Origin: Candidatus Staskawiczbacteria bacterium RIFOXYD1_FULL_32_13
GTDB lineage: Bacteria > Patescibacteriota > Minisyncoccia > Minisyncoccales > Staskawiczbacteraceae
Length of the DNA: 46,821 nucleotides
Direction of reading: 5' to 3'
Assembly: GCA_001820485.1 (NCBI GenBank)
Contig: MHPU01000026.1
Span: 17,873-64,693, forward strand
Shown here: one piece after another, positions 25,881 through 40,799 of the stretch
Layout of the letters: each line of letters begins with the position of its first letter
How positions within the stretch are numbered: position 1 is the stretch's first letter
The notes under the pieces: generated by a model
The model's database searches: none
Seen by the model: only the letters and a program-made list of their open reading frames with translations
Told to the model about the DNA's origin: nothing
Made by a program: the position numbers and the translations under genes

Positions 25881-25934
25881 ATATTTTTTACCTGCCTACC
25901 GGCAGGCAGATTTTTAATAATAATTTTTATTTTT

Positions 25935-29290: not shown

Positions 29291-29454
29291 GATATTTTAT
29301 AATTAACTACGCGATATATGATAAATAACAAATAATATATAAATTTAATTTAATTTATTTTAATTTATTGTTTTACTTTACCTCTTTTGCCTTACAAATT
29401 CAACCCTTCGATTCACTTCGTTCACTCAGGGCAAGGCAAATAAGAAATGCAAGC

Positions 29455-29477
29455 AAAAAGGAAAGCAAAATGCTTCC
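29455..29477 (-). terminator. Intrinsic terminator after the 53-aa ORF
   Basis: On the minus strand: GGAAGCA-UUU-UGCUUUCC, then TTTTT. It is preceded by a second 8-bp hairpin, CACTCTGG/CCAGAGTG (29483-29505). Confidence 0.55.
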
Positions 29478-29530
29478 CTTGCCACTCTGGCAATATTCCA
29501 GAGTGACCATTTTTTTCTCTCACCCCTACT

Positions 29531-29692
29531 CTAGGAGCGACGTTGACGCCGTGGCTTCCTGCCACGACGCTTCGAGGGTTGGGACAAATACGTCCCATCC
29601 TTAAGTCCGTAAAATTGCGCGTACGACACGGGACGGAATGTCCCCCGACGAGTCTGCAAAGACCCGACCCTTCCAGAAACCCTCGCCATCAT
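29531..29692 (-). CDS. Small Arg-rich protein (53 aa), below the ORF-track size cutoff
   Basis: AAGGAG at 29697-29702 precedes ATGATG. Translation: MMARVSGRVGSLQTRRGTFRPVSYAQFYGLKDGTYLSQPSKRRGRKPRRQRRS, stop TAG at 29531-29533. It has its own promoter and terminator. Arg is encoded mostly by CGN, unlike the rest of the window. Confidence 0.4.
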   Translation of the reverse strand: MMARVSGRVGSLQTRRGTFRPVSYAQFYGLKDGTYLSQPSKRRGRKPRRQRRS

Positions 29693-29793
29693 AACACTCC
29701 TTGCTCTTTTTTCTTCCTTGAAACTTGGTTTGCTAGGCGCTTTCTTGCACCACAGCGGAAAAAGAAACTCACTTAAGGAAATTTACAATTTAG

Positions 29794-30889: not shown

Positions 30890-30921
30890 GTATATTTAAT
30901 ATATTAATTATAAATATATTG

Positions 30922-30993
30922 TGCCCTCGGTAGGAGTCGAACCTGCATTACAACGTCCGCAACGTTGCGTCCTATCCATTGAACGACGAGGGC
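30922..30993 (-). tRNA. tRNA-Arg (anticodon GCG by manual fold)
   Basis: Minus strand GCCCTCG..GTTC-AATGGATA-GGAC..CAACG-TTGCGGA-CGTTG..GCAGG-TTCGACT-CCTAC-CGAGGGC-A. Cloverleaf with one C-A mismatch in the T stem. No encoded CCA. Confidence 0.75.
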
Positions 30994-30996
30994 TAA

Positions 30997-31018
30997 ATTC
31001 TGCGTAGAGGATTAAACC
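30997..31018. repeat. Degenerate direct repeat of the tRNA-Ser(GCU) 3' end plus trailer (att-remnant candidate)
   Basis: ATTCTGCGTAGAGG(----)ATTAAACC compared with ATTCTGCGGAGAGGGTGGGATTTGAACC at 38760-38787. The first 14 nt match 13/14. It lies 3 nt from the tRNA-Arg 5' end. Confidence 0.5.
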
Positions 31019-31723: not shown

Positions 31724-32224
31724 TTAATTTATTTTTCTAATATTTATAGCTTCCTCCACCGCGTCAGAAATATATTTTGAAATCCATTCATATCTTTCTT
31801 TGCTATTTTCCCCAGAAGGATTATAACATTTTACAATAGATGATAATTTTCTGCCTGTATTGCCATAGCCTATATAATCAAATGGATTATCGCCTCTTTC
31901 AGTAATAAATCCTTTACTATTTTTTAAACCATGTATGTATATTCCAACAACGCCCATTCCCTTATCCCATGACTTTATTATTTCATAATTTATCCATTTT
32001 CTATTTGCAGTTTGATTCCCAACAAGAACAATTGTACATGATCTATAATCCATTTGATTATTTATCCACCTCTTAATTGCTTCATCTTTACCTGCTTTAA
32101 TTTTCTCCCAATCATTATCAGGTGCTGGCTTATTTCCCTCAATGACGCCTATATTGCGAACCATTGATGCACGCCAACAATCAGGGCTATAGTGAAAACT
32201 ATAAAATACTTGTCTTTTTGCCAT
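31724..32224 (-). CDS. TIR-like domain protein (DUF1863/MTH538 type, Thoeris ThsB-like)
   Basis: MAKRQVFYSFHYSPDCWRASMVRN..., TIVLVGNQTANRKWINYEI (conserved Glu) and GDNPFDYIGY. This pattern matches my recollection of ThsB-type TIR proteins. Confidence 0.7.
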   Translation of the reverse strand: MAKRQVFYSFHYSPDCWRASMVRNIGVIEGNKPAPDNDWEKIKAGKDEAIKRWINNQMDYRSCTIVLVGNQTANRKWINYEIIKSWDKGMGVVGIYIHGLKNSKGFITERGDNPFDYIGYGNTGRKLSSIVKCYNPSGENSKERYEWISKYISDAVEEAINIRKIN

Positions 32225-32228
32225 ATTT

Positions 32229-32630
32229 TTAATTTATTAAATATGTAATTAATATCATAATAAAAATTAATACACCATAAAACCACAATAATGTAGAAGA
32301 AAACATTGAATATGCCCAACTATTTCTATCTATACTTTTATATTTTTCTATATCCATCGAAAAATCAATATCCTTTTCATTTAATTTCCTAACATGATTA
32401 TATAAAGATCTAAATAATCTCTCTTGTGAAAGAAAATAACCATCAAGAATCCAAAATACAATAACTATTAAATACGCAATAAAAATATATTCTTTATTTA
32501 TAGGTTGTGTAGACCATGCAAAAAGAGCAGTAATAATCGTTATAACCCAACCTTTCAAGAAAAATAAATTACCAGCCATTCTATCTATAATGTTTTGTAT
32601 AAACTCTAAATGTTTTTGTTTGTTTTCCAT
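32229..32630 (-). CDS. Small 3-TM membrane protein (candidate effector; SLATT-like is a hypothesis)
   Basis: Amphipathic N-terminus HLEFIQNIIDRMAGN. TM segments at about residues 22-40, 48-67 and 111-131. FWILDGYFLSQERLFRSLYNHV follows TM2. Its stop is 4 nt before the TIR gene ATG. Confidence 0.5.
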   Translation of the reverse strand: MENKQKHLEFIQNIIDRMAGNLFFLKGWVITIITALFAWSTQPINKEYIFIAYLIVIVFWILDGYFLSQERLFRSLYNHVRKLNEKDIDFSMDIEKYKSIDRNSWAYSMFSSTLLWFYGVLIFIMILITYLIN

Positions 32631-33218: not shown

Positions 33219-33526
33219 ATTTAGTAAAATTTACTAATAATTATACAAATTGTCGCCTTTCGACCTAAACAAAAAGGGACAACCTTACTTCTGGTCGCCC
33301 CACAATTTTTGCCCCAAAGGGTTCCAATCATGAGCAGTTTCAGGTTGCCCCTTATTACTCGTGATTGGAAAACACAAAAACAGACCTCTTTGGGAAATAT
33401 AAATTGTAGAGCGACACTTTTAATATATCACACAAATAAATCCGTGTAAAATCAAAAATTATTTTAATCATTTTCTTTATTCAAATATTTTCTTTGTGTT
33501 CGTTATCTTGGGGGGAAAATCGTGAC

Positions 33527-33592
33527 GACTGCCGATAGGCGGTCGTTTGTCTGCCGATAGGCAGACGTTTGTCTGCCGATAGGCAGATAATA
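33527..33592. repeat. Three tandem 22-bp iteron-like units, each a CTGCC-GATA-GGCAG hairpin
   Basis: GACTGCCGATAGGCGGTCGTTT / GTCTGCCGATAGGCAGACGTTT / GTCTGCCGATAGGCAGATAATA, with an exact 22-bp period. Confidence 0.8.
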
Positions 33593-34324
33593 TGAGTTGC
33601 AGTAGCTTAAAAAACACTTTGCTTTGCTTAATTAATTAAGGCGAGGGGTGTATCCACCCTTCGCCACGATTGCCCCCAACAAAAGCCAGCCAACGCATTA
33701 TTTTACAATCACTATTTAAAAGAGAAAATCCTAAAAGGAAATTTTTATTTTATTATTCTCTTATAAATAGTGATAGACTTTTTTTGTTGCCGAAAAACGC
33801 TTGATTGAAAAATAGGCAACCAGAAAATATCACACAAAATCGCTTCGCTATCAAATCACGCTGAAGCGCCATTTGATTTTTTATGTGATATTTTCTGCCT
33901 TTTTTTCAATCTTCGCTTTTCTCAAAGATTTTTCCTCTTACAGAGAAAATTCTTTCAGAAATTTTCGGCTAATCAAAAAAAATCCCTGCAAAATAAACGC
34001 CAACAGCATTAAAAAATATATCCGATTATCGCATATATTTTTTAAGATCTGCTGTTGGCTTGCTTTCTCTCCACCTTGACCCAATACATCTATGCCTTTA
34101 AAGGGCTATTATAAAGGCATAGAATGAATGTATTGCGTCAAGGTAGTAGAATGGCTGGCTTTTGTTGGGGGCAATCGTGGCGAAGGGTGGATACACCCCT
34201 CGCCTTAATTAATTAAGCAAAGCAAAGTGTTTTTAATTTCAATGTTTTAACCCACCCTACCAGAATTAAGGCATTAAAAATATTTTTAATTACAAGTGTT
34301 TTTTAAGCTACTGCAACTCATATT

Positions 34325-34364
34325 ATCTGCCTATCGGCAGACAAACGACCGCCTATCGGCAGTC
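34325..34364. repeat. Two inverted-orientation copies of the 22-bp iteron-like unit (right arm)
   Basis: TCTGCCTATCGGCAGACAAACGACCGCCTATCGGCAGTC is the reverse complement of left-arm units 2 and 1. Confidence 0.8.
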
Positions 34365-34495
34365 GTCACGATTTTCCCCCCAAGATAACGAACACAAAGA
34401 AAATATTTGAATAAAGAAGATGACGGAAAAAATATGTTTTCAAATTATATGATAATCGTATAGACCAGGGGGAGGATACCAATGGGGCAACTTTA

Positions 34496-34524
34496 TTGAC
34501 AATTTATCTTTAAAATAGAATAAT
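34496..34524 (+). promoter_or_regulatory. Promoter candidate for the plus-strand module
   Basis: TTGACA at 34496-34501, a 17-nt spacer and AATAAT at 34519-34524 (alternatively TAGAAT). It sits upstream of the AbrB-like gene. Confidence 0.45.
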
Positions 34525-34550
34525 AGAGGCAAATAAATCAAAATAGTAAA

Positions 34551-34877
34551 ATGTTAAAAATTCGTAAATTACAATATATTGGGAAACAATATCTTTTAAA
34601 TGTGCCAGTTGAAATAATAAAAGAGGCAAAATTTAAAAAAGGCGACTATTTAGAGATAATGCAAGGCCAAAATAGCAACTTTTCTATTAGAAAAATTGCT
34701 GAAAATGATACACCAAGGGTAAAGGTAACCCTAGAATCGCTTAAAAATGAAGCTGTTGCCCTTGCTGGATTAATAAATGCCTTAAGATCTGCCCTGCCGT
34801 CTGCCGAGTTCTCGTTCCGGTTGGCTCAATTTTCTCATGTTCAAGCGAAAATAAGAAAATTGGAAAAGAAGAAGTAA
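34551..34877 (+). CDS. AbrB/SpoVT/MazE-type DNA-binding protein
   Basis: N-terminal KLQYIGKQYLLNVPVEIIKEAKFKKGDYLEI follows the swapped-hairpin (looped-hinge helix) pattern. Confidence 0.55.
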   Translation: MLKIRKLQYIGKQYLLNVPVEIIKEAKFKKGDYLEIMQGQNSNFSIRKIAENDTPRVKVTLESLKNEAVALAGLINALRSALPSAEFSFRLAQFSHVQAKIRKLEKKK

Positions 34878-34907: not shown

Positions 34908-35669
34908 ATGGCTATTAAAATTAATGCAGAAAACCAGAAGACAAAGGATTTTCTTGCATATATTGTTAAAAATATTGCTAAAAAACAAAGTCTTAAACAA
35001 TATGACGAGGTTTTAGTTGAAATACAAAAAGGCAAAACGCCTTTTCCTGAATTTAAGAAATATGATCATGGGTTGGGCAGTGACTATGACGCTTTAGAAA
35101 TGCAATGGAAGTCAAATCCAAAGTATAATGAAAAAGCAATCTTAATAGCTAAATACCTAAACGAAAACTTTGAGAATAGTGCAATTACCTCAACACCGAA
35201 ACAAGATAAAAATAAACCACTAACTTTTATAATTACGATTGTTATTAGTAACCCTTTTGAAATTTTAAAAATATATCAAAAATTAAATACTAAAAATGAA
35301 CTAAAAAAAATAATATTAAAAAATGAAAAACAGAGCAATAAAGATATTTCTAAAATTGAACTATATCTTAATCAAATCGGTGATTTATGGAGAGAACCAA
35401 AAATCAAATATTGTTATCATATGGGAGAAAAAAATGATAGGCATAAAATTTTTCGTTACCTTGTAGAAAATAAGGGATACCAAAATACTAATGATATTGC
35501 ATGCTTTCTTGGCGATAAAAAAGAGCAAGTTATAAGGACAGAAATAAAAAAAATTAAAGATAAAGCATCATATTTTCTTAGTATTAAAAACTCTGATTTA
35601 ATAGAATCTAGGAAAGGGAGCGGTTATAAAATAAACCCAAAATATCATATAAAAATAACAATTCTCTGA
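34908..35669 (+). CDS. Hypothetical protein with C-terminal OmpR/CadC-like winged-helix
   Basis: The C-terminus IFRYLVENKGYQNTNDIACFLG...VIRTEIKKIKDK...LIESRKGSGYKIN resembles a trans_reg_C domain. Confidence 0.35.
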   Translation: MAIKINAENQKTKDFLAYIVKNIAKKQSLKQYDEVLVEIQKGKTPFPEFKKYDHGLGSDYDALEMQWKSNPKYNEKAILIAKYLNENFENSAITSTPKQDKNKPLTFIITIVISNPFEILKIYQKLNTKNELKKIILKNEKQSNKDISKIELYLNQIGDLWREPKIKYCYHMGEKNDRHKIFRYLVENKGYQNTNDIACFLGDKKEQVIRTEIKKIKDKASYFLSIKNSDLIESRKGSGYKINPKYHIKITIL

Positions 35670-35789: not shown

Positions 35790-35978
35790 ATGCTATCAAA
35801 AGAAGCCATTGAGCAATACAAAAAAATCTACAGGAATGCTTATAATATTGAGCTGAATGAAAACGAGGCCACAGAAATGGCCAACGATCTTTTTGAATTT
35901 ATGCGAGCAGTTTATTTGCCTACAGGCGAAGAGGAATTAATAACAACACAAGAAAATGGAACAAAAAATACAAATTAG
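35790..35978 (+). CDS. Small helical protein (62 aa), unknown (excisionase/RDF role not excluded)
   Basis: Intact ORF that overlaps the next gene by 23 nt. Confidence 0.35.
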   Translation: MLSKEAIEQYKKIYRNAYNIELNENEATEMANDLFEFMRAVYLPTGEEELITTQENGTKNTN

Positions 35979-36249
35979 TGAAATTCAAATAGTACCCATT
36001 AAACCACAAGAGGGGCTGATTGCTTTTGCTTCTTTTGTTTTAGATAAAAAATATTATATTGGCTCGGTTGCTATTTATACTAGACTTAATGGCGAGGGTT
36101 TTCGGCTTGCCTACCCAACTAAAAAGATTGGCGACAGAGGTATTAATATTTTTTATCCTATAAATTCTGAAATAGGCAACGCAATAGAAAAAGAAGTAAA
36201 TAAAAAAGTTAATGAAATATTTTATGAAAGAACAAACAAGGCAATTTAG
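35956..36249 (+). CDS. SpoVG-family nucleic-acid-binding protein
   Basis: IQIVPIKPQEGLIAFASFVLDKKYYIGSVAIY...FRLAYPTKK...IFYPINSEIGNAIEKEV aligns to the SpoVG pattern (..AfASitLD..fvv.dirv..G..G.fvamPs.k......i.hPIns..r..i). Confidence 0.7.
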   Translation: MEQKIQISEIQIVPIKPQEGLIAFASFVLDKKYYIGSVAIYTRLNGEGFRLAYPTKKIGDRGINIFYPINSEIGNAIEKEVNKKVNEIFYERTNKAI

Positions 36250-36997
36250 CCAACTATGGGATGATGGAATAAAGTCAGGAATTGTGGGAAAAATAGGAAC
36301 GCAAGTTTTCGCCTTGTTAGTGGTTTTAGCACCATTTATGAATGAGCGTGGCGAGTGTTATCCAACAGAAAATACTCTCGCATTCATTCTACATAAATCT
36401 ATACCCAGCATTATTAAAATGGTAAGTAAAGCTAAAAAGACAATTTATAATGGTGAAGCAGTTTTGAAAGTTAGGCAACAAAAAAGAGTAGACAATGGCA
36501 AAATATTATGGGGGAGCAATTTTTATACTATTTCAAAATCTATAAGAAGTGATCTATTAAGTCGTTATGTTTCCGTAGATAAAAACTTATCTACGGAAAA
36601 TAAAAGCAATTTGAGATCAAAAACACTATTACCGCCAATATCTTTTCCGCCTACGGAAGAAGTATCAACTAACGATAGCCGTTCGTTAAACCATATATTT
36701 ACGAACGATAATAAAAAATCGCTCATAAATATAAATGGCTATAACGAAATTTCCCTAATGGAATTTAGAAAAACAATAAAAAACGAAGTTGATATGAAAT
36801 GTTACGAGATAGCAGAATGGCTTGGCGAAAAAAATATAAATTTTATCCTTAGCGCTTTAAATGATAATAAGTGTGGAATGCACGGCATTGAGCATGCATA
36901 TAGAAAAGTTAAAGATTATGTTGGTGATGGCAATGTGAAAAGCAAACCCAAACTTTTTAATTGGCATATTCAGAATTATAAAAAAGGGAAAAGATAA
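36212..36997 (+). CDS. HTH-domain protein, plasmid/phage replication-initiator-like
   Basis: FALLVVLAPFMNERGECYPTENTLAFILHKSIPSIIKMVSKAKK resembles the HTH_36-type N-terminus of replication/replisome-organizer proteins. Confidence 0.45.
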   Translation: MKYFMKEQTRQFSQLWDDGIKSGIVGKIGTQVFALLVVLAPFMNERGECYPTENTLAFILHKSIPSIIKMVSKAKKTIYNGEAVLKVRQQKRVDNGKILWGSNFYTISKSIRSDLLSRYVSVDKNLSTENKSNLRSKTLLPPISFPPTEEVSTNDSRSLNHIFTNDNKKSLININGYNEISLMEFRKTIKNEVDMKCYEIAEWLGEKNINFILSALNDNKCGMHGIEHAYRKVKDYVGDGNVKSKPKLFNWHIQNYKKGKR

Positions 36998-37040
36998 ATA
37001 TTCATATTGCATTTTAAAAAGTAATAGTGATATAATAAAA

Positions 37041-37153
37041 TTGTTGAGGATAATTCGCTTGGAAAAGGTATTTTATTTATAAAATAGAATATTAAAAGGG
37101 GCTGAAACGCGAGTTATCCTCAACAAATAACTTTTTCCGTTTCAGTCCCTTTT
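37041..37153 (+). promoter_or_regulatory. Interleaved inverted repeats (A-B-A'-B') in the recombinase leader
   Basis: A at 37041-37058 pairs with A' at 37109-37126 (17/18 matches). B at 37094-37109 pairs with B' at 37138-37153 (15/16 matches). Both mismatches are G-U on the plus strand. Confidence 0.5.
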
Positions 37154-37178
37154 AGTATAGTAAAAATAAAATAAAATT

Positions 37179-38801
37179 ATGAAACAATTTAATGAAAGAA
37201 TAAATTATATTTTGTATGCTCGCAAATCTTCTGAAGAAGATAATCGGCAAATGCTTTCGCTAGATTCACAAGAGGGCGAATTAAAAAAAATTGCTGAAAG
37301 AGATAATTTAGAAATTATTAAAATATTCCGCGAAGCACGCTCGGCAAAAGAGCCATACAATAGACCAATATTTTCTGAAATGGTAAAAATGATTGAAGCA
37401 GGAAAAGCTAACGGGATTTTATGTTGGAAATTAGACAGATTATCTAGAAATGCTGTTGAGGAAGGAATAATCAAACACTTATTACAGAAAAATAAAATCA
37501 AAATCATAAGAACGCCCGACAGAGATTACAGGCCAGAAGATAACGCATTAATAGCTTCTGTTGAGTTTGGCATGGCTAATCAATATATTAGAGATTTAAG
37601 CGTAAATGTTAAAAGAGGACTAATAAGCAAAGCTGAAAGTGGATTATTCCCCAACTTTGCACCACTTGGATATTTGAATAATCCACTTGATCCAAAAGGC
37701 AGAAAACAAATTATAAAAGATCCCGAAAGGTTTGATTTAGTGCGTAAAATGTTTGACCTTGTTTTAAGTGAGTACAGGACACCTGTGGAGGTTTGGCGAA
37801 TAGCACACAATGACTGGAAAATGAAAAATCCAAAAGGTAAATTAATTAGTCGATCAACTACTTACCGAATACTAACCAATACTTTATATTCTGGAATCTT
37901 TGAATTTCCTGTTGGCAGTGGAAATTGGCATAAAGGAAAACATGAGGCAGTTATAACTATTGAAGAATATGACAAAATACAAATTATTCTAGGCAAGAAA
38001 GGAAAACCCCGACCACACAATCATATTTTTGCTTTTACAGGATTAATGAAATGTGGAAGTTGTGGGGCTACAATTACAGCAGAGCAGAAAATAAAAAGGC
38101 AGAAAAATGGAAACATACATCAATATACTTATTATCACTGCACTAAAAAGCTAAACCCTAATTGCATTGAAAAGTATATTGAAGAAAAAATATTAATTAA
38201 ACAAATTGTAAATAAAATTGATAAAATTAGTATAAGCCCAGAATTTCACGCTTGGGGGCTTGATTGGCTTAAAAAAGATATTCTAAAAAATATATCTTTG
38301 AAAAACAAAATAATAAATAGCAGAGAAAAGCAGATTGCAGAAATTGAAAAACAATCGTCAGAATTATTAAATCTTTTACTTAGAAAAATTATCAGCGAGG
38401 AAGATTATCAGAATAAAAAAAGTGAACTAGCAAAGGAAAAGGCAAAACTTGAAATTACGGGAAATAATAATAATGACAAAATACAATTACTATTTGAGAA
38501 AACAGCAGAATATTTTGATCTTGCCAAAGACGCCAAAAATGAATTTCTTAATGGCGACATTAATAAACGAAAATGTATTGTTACCAAACTTGGCTCGAAC
38601 CCCTCAATTTCAGAGAGAATATTCAGTATTTGTATCAAAAAAGCCCTTTTGCCTTTTGAAAACATATCAAAAGAGATAAAGGGTATTTATGACAGGTTAG
38701 AACCTACGAAAATCACTATAAATAGTCGGGAACTAAACAAGCTATATGCAAAAAATCTCATTCTGCGGAGAGGGTGGGATTTGAACCCACGAGCCCCATG
38801 A
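37179..38801 (+). CDS. Large serine recombinase (integrase)
   Basis: Resolvase-type N-terminus YILYARKSSEEDNRQMLSLDSQ (Ser nucleophile), a recombinase domain, zinc ribbon CGSCGATITAE...YYHC and a coiled-coil tail. The last 36 nt lie inside tRNA-Ser. Confidence 0.85.
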   Translation: MKQFNERINYILYARKSSEEDNRQMLSLDSQEGELKKIAERDNLEIIKIFREARSAKEPYNRPIFSEMVKMIEAGKANGILCWKLDRLSRNAVEEGIIKHLLQKNKIKIIRTPDRDYRPEDNALIASVEFGMANQYIRDLSVNVKRGLISKAESGLFPNFAPLGYLNNPLDPKGRKQIIKDPERFDLVRKMFDLVLSEYRTPVEVWRIAHNDWKMKNPKGKLISRSTTYRILTNTLYSGIFEFPVGSGNWHKGKHEAVITIEEYDKIQIILGKKGKPRPHNHIFAFTGLMKCGSCGATITAEQKIKRQKNGNIHQYTYYHCTKKLNPNCIEKYIEEKILIKQIVNKIDKISISPEFHAWGLDWLKKDILKNISLKNKIINSREKQIAEIEKQSSELLNLLLRKIISEEDYQNKKSELAKEKAKLEITGNNNNDKIQLLFEKTAEYFDLAKDAKNEFLNGDINKRKCIVTKLGSNPSISERIFSICIKKALLPFENISKEIKGIYDRLEPTKITINSRELNKLYAKNLILRRGWDLNPRAP

Positions 38802-38851
38802 CAGGGCGCAGGTTAGCAACCTGCTGCTTTGAACCGCTCAGCCACCTCTCC
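38766..38851 (-). tRNA. tRNA-Ser (anticodon GCU), long variable arm
   Basis: Minus strand GGAGAGG-TG-GCT-GAGCGGTTCAA-AGC-A-GCAGG-TTGCTAA-CCTGC-(variable arm)-GTGGG-TTCAAAT-CCCAC-CCTCTCC-G. No encoded CCA. Confidence 0.85.
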
Positions 38852-38952: not shown

Positions 38953-39037
38953 GGAGGAGTCCTATAGCGGCTATTAGAACAGTCTTGAAAACTGTGACCT
39001 CGTAAGGGGTTCGTGGGTTCGAGTCCCACCTCCTCCG
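38953..39037 (+). tRNA. tRNA-Ser (anticodon UGA), long variable arm
   Basis: GGAGGAG...ACAGT-CTTGAAA-ACTGT-(ACCTC-GTAA-GGGGT)-GTGGG-TTCGAGT-CCCAC-CTCCTCC-G. Confidence 0.8.
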
Positions 39038-39081
39038 CCGTAACTTTTGTTCATTCATCACTTTTGAAAAAGGAGCATTTC

Positions 39082-39375
39082 GTGCCAAGAAAAAGAAGGA
39101 TCACGTATTGGTGTGACTTTCACCAAAAACAAGTTCCCCAGAGAGAAAAATGCAAAAAATGCGATCCTCGCAATTGCTTTTATCTGGTGAAGCTCTCAAG
39201 AAAATACCAGAGAAGCAAAAAGTCAACACGACATCATTGCGGTAAAAGAAACAAAAAACCCAATGAGAACAAATTCTGCGTTCTCGGAGGGAAAATGCAA
39301 TTTCGAATTGGCCACTGGGAAAGGTACCAGCGAAGGGCCTATAAACAAAAACTTAGAATCGATATCCGATTCTAA
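39082..39375 (+). CDS. Small basic Cys-containing protein (97 aa), unknown
   Basis: AGGAG at 39071-39075, 6 nt before an in-frame GTG. VPRKRRITYWCDFHQKQVPQREKCKKCDPRNC... The track's ATG at 39013 lies inside the tRNA. GC-richer than the backbone. Confidence 0.35.
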   Translation: MPRKRRITYWCDFHQKQVPQREKCKKCDPRNCFYLVKLSRKYQRSKKSTRHHCGKRNKKPNENKFCVLGGKMQFRIGHWERYQRRAYKQKLRIDIRF

Positions 39376-39392
39376 CACATGTAAAAACCAAG

Positions 39393-39418
39393 AGGGCGGC
39401 TCAATCTGGAGTCGCCCT
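39393..39418. terminator. 10-bp GC hairpin between convergent genes
   Basis: AGGGCGGCTC-AATCTG-GAGTCGCCCT with T-rich tracts on both sides at a short distance. Confidence 0.5.
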
Positions 39419-39446
39419 AAATCATTTATTTTTTATAAAAAATTAA

Positions 39447-40799
39447 CTAACTTCTCTCCCCCAAAACAACTTCTATAAAAATTTCTTTACCATCACGAAA
39501 AATTTTTAAATTTATTTTATCATTTGGATTATATTTTTGAATAATTTTTGACATTGAATTTTCTTGCGTAATTTTTTCACTATTAATCTCCAAAATTAGA
39601 TCATTTTCTTTAAGCCCAGCTTTTTCTGCTGAAGAGCCAGCAGTAATTGCTACTTCACCTTTTTCTCCTTTTAAAACCAATGCACCATAATCATAAGATA
39701 ATTTATATTTTTCTTTTATTTGTTCATTAACTAAAGAATATCTTACGCCCAAAAATGGATAAGTAATCTTATTTGTAGCTATTACTTGAGCAATATCTTT
39801 TTTAGCTCTGTTTATTGGAATTGCAAAACCAATACTATTTGCACCCTGAGCCATTGCAGTATTTACACCAATCACTTCTCCTTTTAAATTAAGTAAAGGT
39901 CCTCCGGAATTTCCCGAATTAATAGCTGCATCTGTTTGAATAATATCTTCTAAAACTTCTGAAAATCCACTTGAACCAAAAGCAGAAATTGTTCGACTCA
40001 AACCAGAAACAATTCCCACAGAAACAGTATTTCTAAATTCACCCAAAGCATTTCCAATAGCTATAGCTCCCTGACCAATTTGAATTCCAGCAGAATCTCC
40101 TAACTTAATAGCTGGAAATTTTTCTCCATTCTGAGAAGTAATTTTAACAATTGCTAAATCTTGGACTGGATCCAAAGCTAAAACCTTAGCAATATATTTT
40201 TTACCATCATTTGTTAAAACAGTATATTCTGCATCTTTATCTATAACAACATGTTTATTTGTTAAAACTAAACCATCATCTGAAACAATAAATCCCGATC
40301 CCCCACCAATTTCCTTTTTCTCTGTTCCTTTTTGTTTGTATTGTGGGATCTGAATATCAAAGCCAGGACCAAAATCAAAAAATGGAGAATCAAATTCTTC
40401 AAATGGATCTGTAAAATATTGTTCATAAACAGGCATATTTTTAGATATTATAATACTAACTACAGAAGGTGAAGTTTGCTTAACTGCATCAATAATTGCT
40501 TGTTCATAAGAAATTGGCGAAACATAAAAAGTTGCTTGTTTCTGGACCAACTCTTGTTTTTGAGCTAAATTTTCATTTTTTATTTTCTGTAATTGGTTTT
40601 CTATTGGTGCTAAAAAACTTTTTATTTGACTGTCAAAATATTTTGGAAAATATGCTTGTACTAAAAAACCCATTGCAATAATTACAACTATAGCTAAAAA
40701 AACGCCCCAAATTACTCTGTTTTGCAGAACTTTTATAAATTTATTTATAATTTCTTTTATTTCTTTTAAATTGACTTGTGGTTGATCATAAATATTCAT
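39447..40799 (-). CDS. HtrA/DegP-family serine protease with PDZ domain
   Basis: Catalytic triad contexts TNKHVV, DLAIVK and GNSGGPL. C-terminal PDZ-like domain and an N-terminal TM anchor. Confidence 0.85.
   Translation of the reverse strand: MNIYDQPQVNLKEIKEIINKFIKVLQNRVIWGVFLAIVVIIAMGFLVQAYFPKYFDSQIKSFLAPIENQLQKIKNENLAQKQELVQKQATFYVSPISYEQAIIDAVKQTSPSVVSIIISKNMPVYEQYFTDPFEEFDSPFFDFGPGFDIQIPQYKQKGTEKKEIGGGSGFIVSDDGLVLTNKHVVIDKDAEYTVLTNDGKKYIAKVLALDPVQDLAIVKITSQNGEKFPAIKLGDSAGIQIGQGAIAIGNALGEFRNTVSVGIVSGLSRTISAFGSSGFSEVLEDIIQTDAAINSGNSGGPLLNLKGEVIGVNTAMAQGANSIGFAIPINRAKKDIAQVIATNKITYPFLGVRYSLVNEQIKEKYKLSYDYGALVLKGEKGEVAITAGSSAEKAGLKENDLILEINSEKITQENSMSKIIQKYNPNDKINLKIFRDGKEIFIEVVLGERS

Follow-up and report, generated by a model that had tools for sequence, protein, structure and literature searches.

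The stretch of DNA considered here, hereafter the window, comprises 46,821 nucleotides of contig MHPU01000026.1 from Candidatus Staskawiczbacteria bacterium RIFOXYD1_FULL_32_13, and all coordinates are its own unless another contig is named. With an overall G+C content of 29.7%, it carries housekeeping genes (an NAD-dependent DNA ligase and a T2SSE-type secretion ATPase among them) which lie nearly all on the minus strand. Two tRNA genes, tRNA-Arg (30921-30993) and tRNA-Ser(gct) (38765-38851, minus strand), flank about 7.8 kb that hold a large interrupted palindrome. The palindrome lies within a gene-free stretch of 1.33 kb (33219-34550), between defence cargo on the left, encoded by the minus strand, and backbone genes on the right, encoded by the plus strand. 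The first of the latter, gene 1 (34551-34877), has an AbrB/MazE-like N-terminal domain and is the hallmark of a family of genomic islands to which this region belongs. As far as comparison with relatives can tell, the palindromic module, made of two inverted arms around a core filled with hairpins, is a conserved, flippable non-coding cis-element.

An earlier note, made from the letters of this DNA, had described 33467-33691 and 34153-34423 as almost perfect reverse complements. Repeat search and gapped alignment bear this out, matching 33458/33467-33692 with 34152-34423/34433. The arms have a G+C content of 39%, ten points over the mean of the window, and their innermost 83 nt are 100% complementary. 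They differ in three ways: an extra 22-nt unit, CTGCCGATAGGCAGACGTTTGT, gives the left arm (33458-33692) three copies against two in the right arm (34152-34433, which has the 272-bp form); a 69-nt segment with AAAAACACTT direct repeats at its bounds (34235-34303 in the alignment) is found in the right arm only; and a single mismatch lies close to the outer end. Each of the tandem 22-nt units of the left arm (33529-33594, plus strand; Tandem Repeats Finder score 104) contains the dyad CTGCC-GATA-GGCAG, which has nine matches in the window where 0.03 would be expected. The dyad search placed the two units of the right arm at 34327-34362 on the minus strand, and comparison makes them the positional counterparts of GC-rich hairpins found in relatives. 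Yet another GC-rich hairpin, GGCGAGGGGTG-TAT-CCACCCTTCGCC, can be read in the left arm at 33640-33665, with a mirror copy at 34179-34204. Two observations touch the arms from outside. At 25892-25905, well away from the island, an intergenic spacer of the chromosome contains CTGCCGGTAGGCAG, which differs by one mismatch from the arm dyad CTGCCGATAGGCAG. Just beyond the left arm, the minus strand of 33276-33450 displays a promoter-like TTTACA-17-TATATT with a TG, followed some 120 nt on by a terminator-like hairpin with no open reading frame (ORF) between them; a small RNA may be encoded there.

Contigs of the same population, found by exact-protein look-ups (more than ten, at 99.9-100% identity), come from assemblies at NCBI (GCA_000989435.1, GCA_001820355.1, GCA_001820375.1, GCA_001822145.1), JGI, ENA and Logan. 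The arm lengths of 225 and 271 bp stated in the earlier note hold for the window, not for the common form: in L005, L006 and L009 each arm measures 272 bp, with 271/272 identical positions, which makes a symmetric structure of 1,003 bp. In L007 a run of Ns lies exactly at the deviating part of the window's left arm, and the left-arm form of the window is seen in no other assembly. The symmetric arms of the three contigs, taken with the N run, argue that the common true form is the symmetric one, the asymmetry of the window being a strain variant or a product of gap closure.

The same note had worried about the integrity of the assembly, and on this point the answer is clear. Arm/core junctions are present in at least ten independent assemblies of the population; arm/core, core/arm and arm/flank junctions recur at 99.9-100% identity across the four sources and in different samples; scaffolds L005 and L006 span the whole structure. 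This confirms that the palindrome is real and no artefact of assembly. A chimeric inverted join could be suspected because so many contigs break within the arms, because L007 has Ns in its left arm and because the left arm of the window is without parallel, but an inverted repeat longer than the k-mers is expected to break contigs, most of which indeed end there. Against such a join stand the recurrent junctions, the two spanning scaffolds, and diverged relatives with homologous structures whose repeats are too short to confuse an assembler, so that it is scarcely conceivable. Of the comparisons with related bins and with plasmid and phage contigs that the note had proposed, the first gave arms and core in assemblies of the same population and homologous modules in relatives; blastn of 33300-34550 against the plasmids of PLSDB and the phages of INPHARED gave no match; nor did the exact arm-hairpin pattern occur in genome_contigs.

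The unique core of 459 bp (33693-34151) is an array of long imperfect hairpins, and also the segment that is found inverted. Folded as DNA, it reaches -111 kcal/mol against -42 +/- 4.8 for shuffled sequences (z -14.5); folded as RNA, it gives z -11.9 for the plus strand and z -14.7 for the minus strand. A 300-nt sliding scan makes the region the most structure-prone place of the whole window, with z about -4.5. Its five hairpins lie where they had first been described: H1 (33708-33774) and H4 (33999-34059), both visible in repeat search and fold; H2 (33803-33911) and H3 (33918-33961), which folds place together within a nested domain (33775-33985); and H5 (34082-34135, extending to 34067-34151), the sole part with sequence conserved across lineages. 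The nesting is deeper than had been thought, owing to added closing helices, one pair (33775-33796/33962-33985) around H2 and H3 and a further one at 33698-33707/33987-33996. There is no credible ORF, as the earlier note had also held: the sole one of at least 60 aa, a 68-aa frame with a TTG start (33873-34079), merely crosses the hairpins. At the gathering threshold of Rfam 15, tRNAs alone match in the window, and at an E-value threshold only sub-threshold generic hairpins of the miRNA type appear, nothing relevant.

The relatives of the island show what has been kept of this structure. Among 1.84 billion representatives, the gene-1 family accounts for about 20 clusters when grouped at 50% identity, and genomic contexts were recovered for nine lineages, one of them annotated as Candidatus Falkowbacteria; gene 1, gene 2 and a serine recombinase are common to all nine. 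In L036 a perfect 28-nt inverted repeat encloses a core of 371 bp, and in L033/L034 a 22-nt inverted repeat encloses 385 bp. Both cores are packed with nested hairpins (fold z -14.5 and -19.1, respectively), and neither module can be aligned with that of the window outside H5. Hairpin architecture is thus found at the same locus in lineages where gene 1 is only 35-50% identical. In L025-L030 the gene module is kept, but the intergenic region shrinks to 153 bp with one 113-nt hairpin (z -14), and a pair of 20-bp palindromes lies inside gene 5. In five further lineages (L010, L023, L024, L031/32 and L041/42) the contigs stop 130-260 bp upstream of gene 1, where an arm would begin; the versions of L036 and L033/L034 are complete. 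As for the other contig ends, L036 opens with a degraded Illumina adapter (1-47), joined to the sequence 8 nt beyond its left inverted repeat, and L033 and L034 both begin exactly at the outer end of theirs; low coverage, a variable left cargo or a physical end of the DNA could account for these starts.

In every lineage, the DNA that separates the core from gene 1 holds two or three short GC-rich hairpins, then a run of six C residues (C6), the motif TTATATGATA(A/G)T and a promoter. The sequence of these hairpins differs among lineages, the version of the window being the 22-nt 'iterons', and compensatory double changes are seen in relatives that are about 87% identical (AGCGCC/GGCGCT against TGCCCC/GGGGCA). 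The cores of L036 and L037 differ by substitutions concentrated in one hairpin, without a clear compensatory pattern. We may firmly take it from these comparisons that pairing has been conserved while sequence, apart from H5, has not, and, just as firmly, that the palindrome of the window represents a lineage-specific expansion, with arms growing from 22 to 272 bp, of a conserved hairpin array closed by repeats.

What H5 preserves across lineages is the sequence of its base, TCTCCACCTTGACC...CAAGGTAG, together with a TATAAT on the edge of the loop. In the window TCTCCACCTTGACC (34068-34081) pairs with GTCAAGGTAG (34137-34146), and the TATAAT is on the minus strand (34113-34108). The two base blocks, TCTCCACCTTGACC (14 nt) and CAAGGTAGTA (10 nt), are identical in the window, L036/L037 and L033, while L040 has one substitution in each (TCTCCACCTTGACT, CAAGGTAGAA); included is a C.A mismatch, which on the opposite strand becomes a G.T wobble. 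Inside these blocks the sequence is completely different from one lineage to the next, yet it pairs in each. On the strand complementary to TCTCCACCTTGACC, the hexamer TATAAT (TATAAA in L040) lies at the edge of the apical loop, on the 5' side, in 4/4 cases, and it is directed into the core, not outward across the nearest repeat. In the window and L036 the distance from a TTGAC/TTTAC box at the base of the stem to TATAAT is 22 nt, of which five are bulged, that is, 17 helical bp. The same strand also folds better in three lineages (-187.7/-155.1, -135.0/-121.7 and -168.8/-147.6), which points to a strand-specific role, and it has more G-U pairs, 26 against 15. The H5 pattern was absent from viral_contigs.

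Such features could suggest that the module is a self-contained gene for a large structured non-coding RNA, made from the strand complementary to TCTCCACCTTGACC, with the GC hairpin and the U/A-rich tract of each arm as its terminator. Indeed, the arm hairpin GGCGAAGGGTGGATACACCCCTCGCC followed by TTAATTAATT is read outward from the core on both sides; the RNA folds reach z -11.9 to -14.7; the favoured strand is the same in three lineages, with its excess of G-U pairs; hairpins persist through sequence turnover, with some compensatory pairs; and a self-contained gene would tolerate inversion. We nevertheless consider this unlikely. No Rfam family corresponds to it beyond the sub-threshold hairpins mentioned above, helices of 17-48 near-perfect bp resemble DNA palindromes and would be substrates of RNase III, no promoter is convincing, and a transcript starting at the TATAAT of H5 would leave out H5, the conserved hairpin.

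A different way to account for the module is to deny it a function, as a palindrome cluster that perpetuates itself when replication switches template or one arm converts the other, or as an old foldback insertion, tolerated in an intergenic spacer in which the only working pieces would be small operators, namely the H5 base and the GC hairpins. Arm lengths that range from 22 to 272 bp, arms that are 271/272 identical within a copy, indels at direct repeats, a lineage reduced to a 113-nt hairpin, and the absence of any other copy found and of coding or RNA-family signal all agree with it. What makes us doubt it, to about the same degree as the RNA gene, is the persistence of the architecture at one locus (z -14 to -19) where gene 1 is so diverged, and the conservation of the H5 blocks and loop hexamer. 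The mobile version, offered as an alternative in the earlier note, fares poorly. A mobile foldback or a miniature inverted-repeat transposable element (MITE) is expected in multiple copies with target-site duplications. No extra copy was found in the window or the fetched loci, which is where the search was made, the whole host genome lying outside it; plasmids, phages, genome_contigs and viral_contigs gave no hits. The arm ends fade into mismatched flanks without a direct repeat, and diverged relatives have inherited the structure at this very locus.

That the core can be turned around is best seen in L033 and L040, about 87% identical and collinear on the right side of the module, with cores in opposite orientation: in L040 the H5 end adjoins gene 1 and is on the plus strand; in L033 it is at the end away from gene 1, as the reverse complement. 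Their inverted repeats are only 22 nt long, and on that ground the difference cannot be an assembler's choice. Within the population of the window, the core of L015 (an 85.6-kb JGI contig) is flipped relative to its right flank, nine other assemblies having the orientation of the window; here the flip may be the choice of the assembler because the 272-bp arms exceed k-mer and read length. We can firmly hold, from these alignments, that the hairpin array inverts. As the core occurs both ways round, the idea of a recombination substrate, which the earlier note listed among its alternatives, gains support. The same arm differs by about 8% between the window and L031, while the two arms within one copy are near-identical, which shows that the arms are homogenised.

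It is natural to think then of a phase-variable inverton, in which the core would be a programmed switch toggling the island between two states: from the TATAAT of H5, transcription would proceed toward the defence cargo in one orientation and, in the other, toward the backbone with its regulators, initiator and recombinase. Known invertible switches (fimS, the hin/gin segments, the invertons of Bacteroides and Clostridioides) likewise have inverted repeats around an intergenic segment of a few hundred bp, exist in both orientations among near relatives and have a serine recombinase nearby. In favour of such a switch here, the segment is bounded by inverted repeats, 370-460 bp long and set between divergently oriented gene sets, with L033 and L040 opposed, L015 flipped, hexamers of the -10 and -35 type conserved in H5, a serine recombinase encoded by the island, and GC hairpins on the exit paths that could be attenuators. 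The module departs from the known switches in having arms that reach 272 bp and are unconserved between lineages, a segment filled with hairpins, and neither a demonstrated outward promoter nor an adjacent small invertase. The recombinase lies 3 kb from the palindrome, whose similarity to the attachment (att) regions does not go beyond chance; and repeats that change between lineages while the recombinase family is kept argue against dedicated site-specific inversion. Further difficulties are a duplex -35/-10 spacing of 22 or 7 nt, a transcript that must pass about 400 nt of hairpins, and more hairpins after these, before reaching any gene, flanking operons that each have a promoter-like site outside the arms, the possible assembler origin of the L015 flip, and an extreme hairpin content left unexplained. 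A programmed switch is, in our opinion, rather doubtful.

The genes of the island give the module its setting. A 14/16 direct repeat, ATTCTGCG(T/G)AGAGG(A/G)T, lies at 30997-31012 (plus strand), abutting tRNA-Arg, and at 38760-38775, at the recombinase end; the two copies probably mark the ends of an island of 7.78 kb. A search for a tRNA-Ser remnant returned only this repeat at 30997. On the minus strand, 31724-32630 encodes a candidate two-gene defence system, PDC-M50A (133 aa, 3.8e-50) and a PDC-M50B/ThsB-like TIR protein (166 aa, 1e-67); in L025 the cargo side has an MvaI_BcnI restriction-modification pair in place of this one. To the right, C6 and the motif TTATATGATAAT, both conserved, precede the promoter of gene 1, a sigma-70-like TTGACA-17-AATAAT found by consensus scan (34496-34524, plus strand, 11/12 matches) outside the arm; both flanking operons in fact have promoter-like sites of their own outside the arms. 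All on the plus strand, gene 1 is followed by gene 2 (34908-35669), conserved in the family and without a family match, by a backbone gene of 62 aa, by gene 4 (35956-36249), which is SpoVG-like (PF04026, 2e-07), and by gene 5 (36212-36997), which occupies a variable slot. Next comes a large serine recombinase (37179-38801; Resolvase, Recombinase and Zn_ribbon_recom domains of Pfam; phrog_95 integrase, 7e-71).

The recombinase ORF terminates 37 nt inside tRNA-Ser(gct), the integration target and right end of the island, so that its last codons are supplied by the target. The recombinase ends in a tRNA-Ser wherever the contigs of relatives extend that far; its end falls within the 3' part of the tRNA gene at 38765-38801 in the window (gct), 4672-4813 in L023 (cga) and 4271-4403 in L031 (gct), and L025/L026 have a tRNA-Ser(gga) at the corresponding position (about 13581-13669 in L025). 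The conjecture that an integrated plasmid-like element lies here proves sound in the wider sense of plasmid- or phage-like.

Gene 5, taken for Rep-like in the earlier note, resembles a winged-helix replication initiator (phrog_12720, 7e-11; weak HTH_36). The predicted structure of its 261-aa product has a predicted local distance difference test score (pLDDT) of 59, and Foldseek gives generic winged-helix matches only (E >= 0.02), with the N-domains of plasmid initiators 4pql and 4pt7 at ranks 4 and 10. A PDB profile search with this protein returned nothing, relatives of gene 5 and of the recombinase were absent from viral_contigs, and a scan of metagenome_contigs with the gene-5 alignment produced one short contig that was already known. 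In relatives the slot holds clear replication proteins, which agrees with the Rep-like call: a DnaD-like loader in L024 (1533-2186, 3e-50), a Rep O-like protein in L031 (1893-2486, 4e-14) and a phrog_270 member in L025 (11303-11833, 1.6e-9). Initiators of these types and of the HTH_36 type have thus replaced one another non-orthologously in an otherwise collinear backbone, and the presence of an initiator or loader in this slot of every relative implies that the islands are replicative. Judging from gene content, they are a small family in groundwater Patescibacteria-like bacteria which integrates beside tRNA-Ser and carries an initiator gene and defence cargo.

With an initiator at hand, one may ask whether the module is a classical iteron origin, whose 22-nt dyad repeats would bind the gene-5 protein while the AT-rich, hairpin-bearing core melts. 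It has two or three tandem dyad units per arm with AT-rich stretches beside them, and no other non-coding region of this initiator-encoding island is as large. However, L025-L030 keep the genes with only a 113-nt hairpin and have a dyad pair of their own inside gene 5; near-identical upstream regions precede non-homologous initiators (window and L031; L010 and L024), the upstream region co-varying with gene 1 and not with initiator type; and at the positions of the window's 22-nt repeats L036 has three different hairpins, not repeats, and L033/L023 two dissimilar ones. Sites resembling DnaA boxes are not enriched (168 in the window against 197 expected), and in the palindrome only the arm ends match. 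The loss of most of the module in L025-L030, together with an upstream region that does not track the initiator, makes a classical iteron origin very unlikely. The proposal of an initiator-dependent origin, put forward in the earlier note, does not stand up well, and the circumstance that this note named as telling against it, homologous elements with the same gene module and no palindrome, is partly what L025-L030 present, since their 153-bp region retains its hairpin. In the light of these alignments the module is accessory and independent of the initiator. Another stretch of the island drew attention, the spacer between gene 5 and the recombinase (36998-37178), which has nested hairpins and an inverted pair of DnaA-box-like TTATCCTCA (37045-37053 and 37114-37122), with an insertion of about 50 bp in L005; the true origin linked to the initiator could lie here, or a site that regulates the recombinase.

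Several well-studied systems resemble the module in part. In the IncQ plasmid RSF1010, the origin oriV combines iterons with a large palindrome bearing ssiA and ssiB, hairpins that prime both strands; a symmetric layout of this type would tolerate inversion, and IncQ replication requires its own RepA, RepB and RepC. The window shares with it tandem repeats of about 20-22 bp and, next to them, a large inverted repeat along with stretches rich in GC or in AT; it differs in that RepA, RepB and RepC are absent from the island, and that the 'iterons' of its relatives are not repeats. Filamentous phages of the Ff group have a non-coding intergenic region of about 500 nt, folded into five hairpins for packaging and for strand origins; the island, by contrast, has no inovirus genes (Zot-like ATPase, coat, gpII), and its module is flanked by long inverted repeats. 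Candidates that were tried and discarded include a hairpin telomere or protelomerase site, as a 459-bp unique core separates the arms and no protelomerase gene is there, and also an integron attC array, membership in the inovirus intergenic regions, IS200/IS605-type ends and a CRISPR-like array, for each of which the defining gene or layout is absent.

The single-strand origins (sso) of rolling-circle plasmids offer a closer parallel. They have a conserved loop hexamer called CS-6, to which the loop TATAAT of H5, set above the base block TCTCCACCTTGACC, may be compared in layout, though the motifs themselves differ from those of sso and no likeness in sequence to known sso is apparent. Elements of the ssoA and ssoU types are, like the module, non-coding imperfect palindromes of a few hundred nt with structure conserved over sequence, modular and dispensable, with a conserved block (RSB in sso) at the base of a hairpin (PMC5703833). 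The module, for its part, is several times larger, is closed by long inverted repeats, has its core in both orientations (L033 against L040, L015 against nine other assemblies) where sso work in one, and belongs to an island without a rolling-circle Rep or double-strand origin (dso); no Rep_1, Rep_2, Rep_trans or relaxase family was found in Pfam, PHROGs or NCBIfam for any protein of the island. In the single-strand promoters of the Frpo type, which belong to the leading regions of conjugative plasmids, single-stranded DNA folds into a long stem-loop that gives boxes of the -35 and -10 kind the geometry of a promoter (PMC9849209). H5 is similar in that its TTGAC lies in the stem with TATAAT 17 helical bp away in two lineages; it differs in that this spacing is not kept in L033/L040 and that its TATAAT is in the loop, not in the stem, and the island has no known conjugation genes or oriT.

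We may tentatively favour, as a possibility still well short of probable, the view that the module is a priming or polymerase-entry site at which hairpins are extruded when the island is excised. It would act in cis, as DNA, its hairpins being extruded or single-stranded while the excised island replicates, and would give the RNA polymerase or primase of the host a place to enter or to prime, in the manner of single-strand initiation sites, sso or Frpo-type promoters. H5 would be the recognition hairpin, with a TTGAC-like box at the base of its stem and, in two lineages, a TATAAT that the loop exposes at a distance of 17 helical bp. Recombination between arms would keep these identical and flip the core; were the hairpin signals strand-specific, a flip would change the strand that presents them. 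Precedents exist: host RNA polymerase recognises sso and primes at the ssoA hairpin with its conserved RSB (PMC5703833), and Frpo hairpins rebuild -35/-10 boxes (PMC9849209). This reading would fit the layout of base and loop hexamer, as in ssoA, the hairpin-promoter logic of Frpo and the dispensability of the module; being dispensable and not tied to an initiator type suits an accessory site that relies on host factors. Also on its side are the homologous hairpin arrays of relatives, the conserved blocks and hexamer of H5, the better folding of one and the same strand in three lineages with its excess of G-U pairs, the compensatory changes in the short GC hairpins, and the replicative character of the island.

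A number of facts weigh against an entry site of this kind. HUH or rolling-circle Rep proteins, relaxases and primases are absent among the proteins of the island, the initiators found are of the theta or phage type, and the single-stranded stage that it calls for is hypothetical. Elements of the sso kind function in one orientation only (PMC5703833), and this core is found in both. The spacing from box to TATAAT is 7 nt, not 17, in L033 and L040. The strand asymmetry is modest (8 against 3 single mismatches) and could reflect mutational skew, which makes it suggestive only. Finally, in a scan for consensus promoters none passed in the arms, and in the core there were only weak ones, with 9/12 matches.

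Combining this priming or polymerase-entry site with inversion leads to a bolder and quite improbable proposal, namely that a strand-specific hairpin array recognised by polymerase, a pre-melted promoter or primer site with its -35 in the stem and its TATAAT in the loop, rides on a flippable cassette as a phase-variable single-strand origin or promoter. If this were true, inversion would be a stochastic on/off switch for replication or establishment of a minimal serine-recombinase island in Patescibacteria, or for its gene expression from single-stranded DNA, a combination not described for any mobile element.

Two places outside the island deserve a brief mention. The non-coding stretch 29380-29760, beside tRNA-Arg, has about 52% G+C against 29.7% for the window and a minus-strand RNA fold with z -5.4; it matched nothing in Rfam, not even at E <= 0.1, was not called as transfer-messenger RNA (tmRNA), and is a candidate for an unannotated structured RNA. 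At 39013-39375 a 120-aa ORF with a GTG start, rich in lysine and arginine, overlaps the end of tRNA-Ser(tga) within a comparatively GC-rich, structure-prone stretch (39001-39450), and its coding status is doubtful.

No known family fits the module, whether it is measured against Rfam, the plasmid and phage databases, or the features that define sso, invertons and MITEs. Its ingredients, invertible segments bounded by inverted repeats and hairpin origins, are known; their combination and the host group are new. In practical terms, it is a recurrent source of contig breaks and of ambiguous orientation in the metagenome-assembled genomes of these bacteria. The mobile elements of the candidate phyla radiation are almost uncharacterised, and as these bacteria cannot be grown alone, knowledge of cis-acting sites must come from comparison. 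The present analysis defines a family of replication-competent islands which integrate at tRNA-Ser, carry defence cargo and possess an invertible module made of hairpins only, in which structure is constrained and sequence is free. If this module is an entry site for the host polymerase, or a switch, it would show how tiny islands replicate or change state without machinery of their own.

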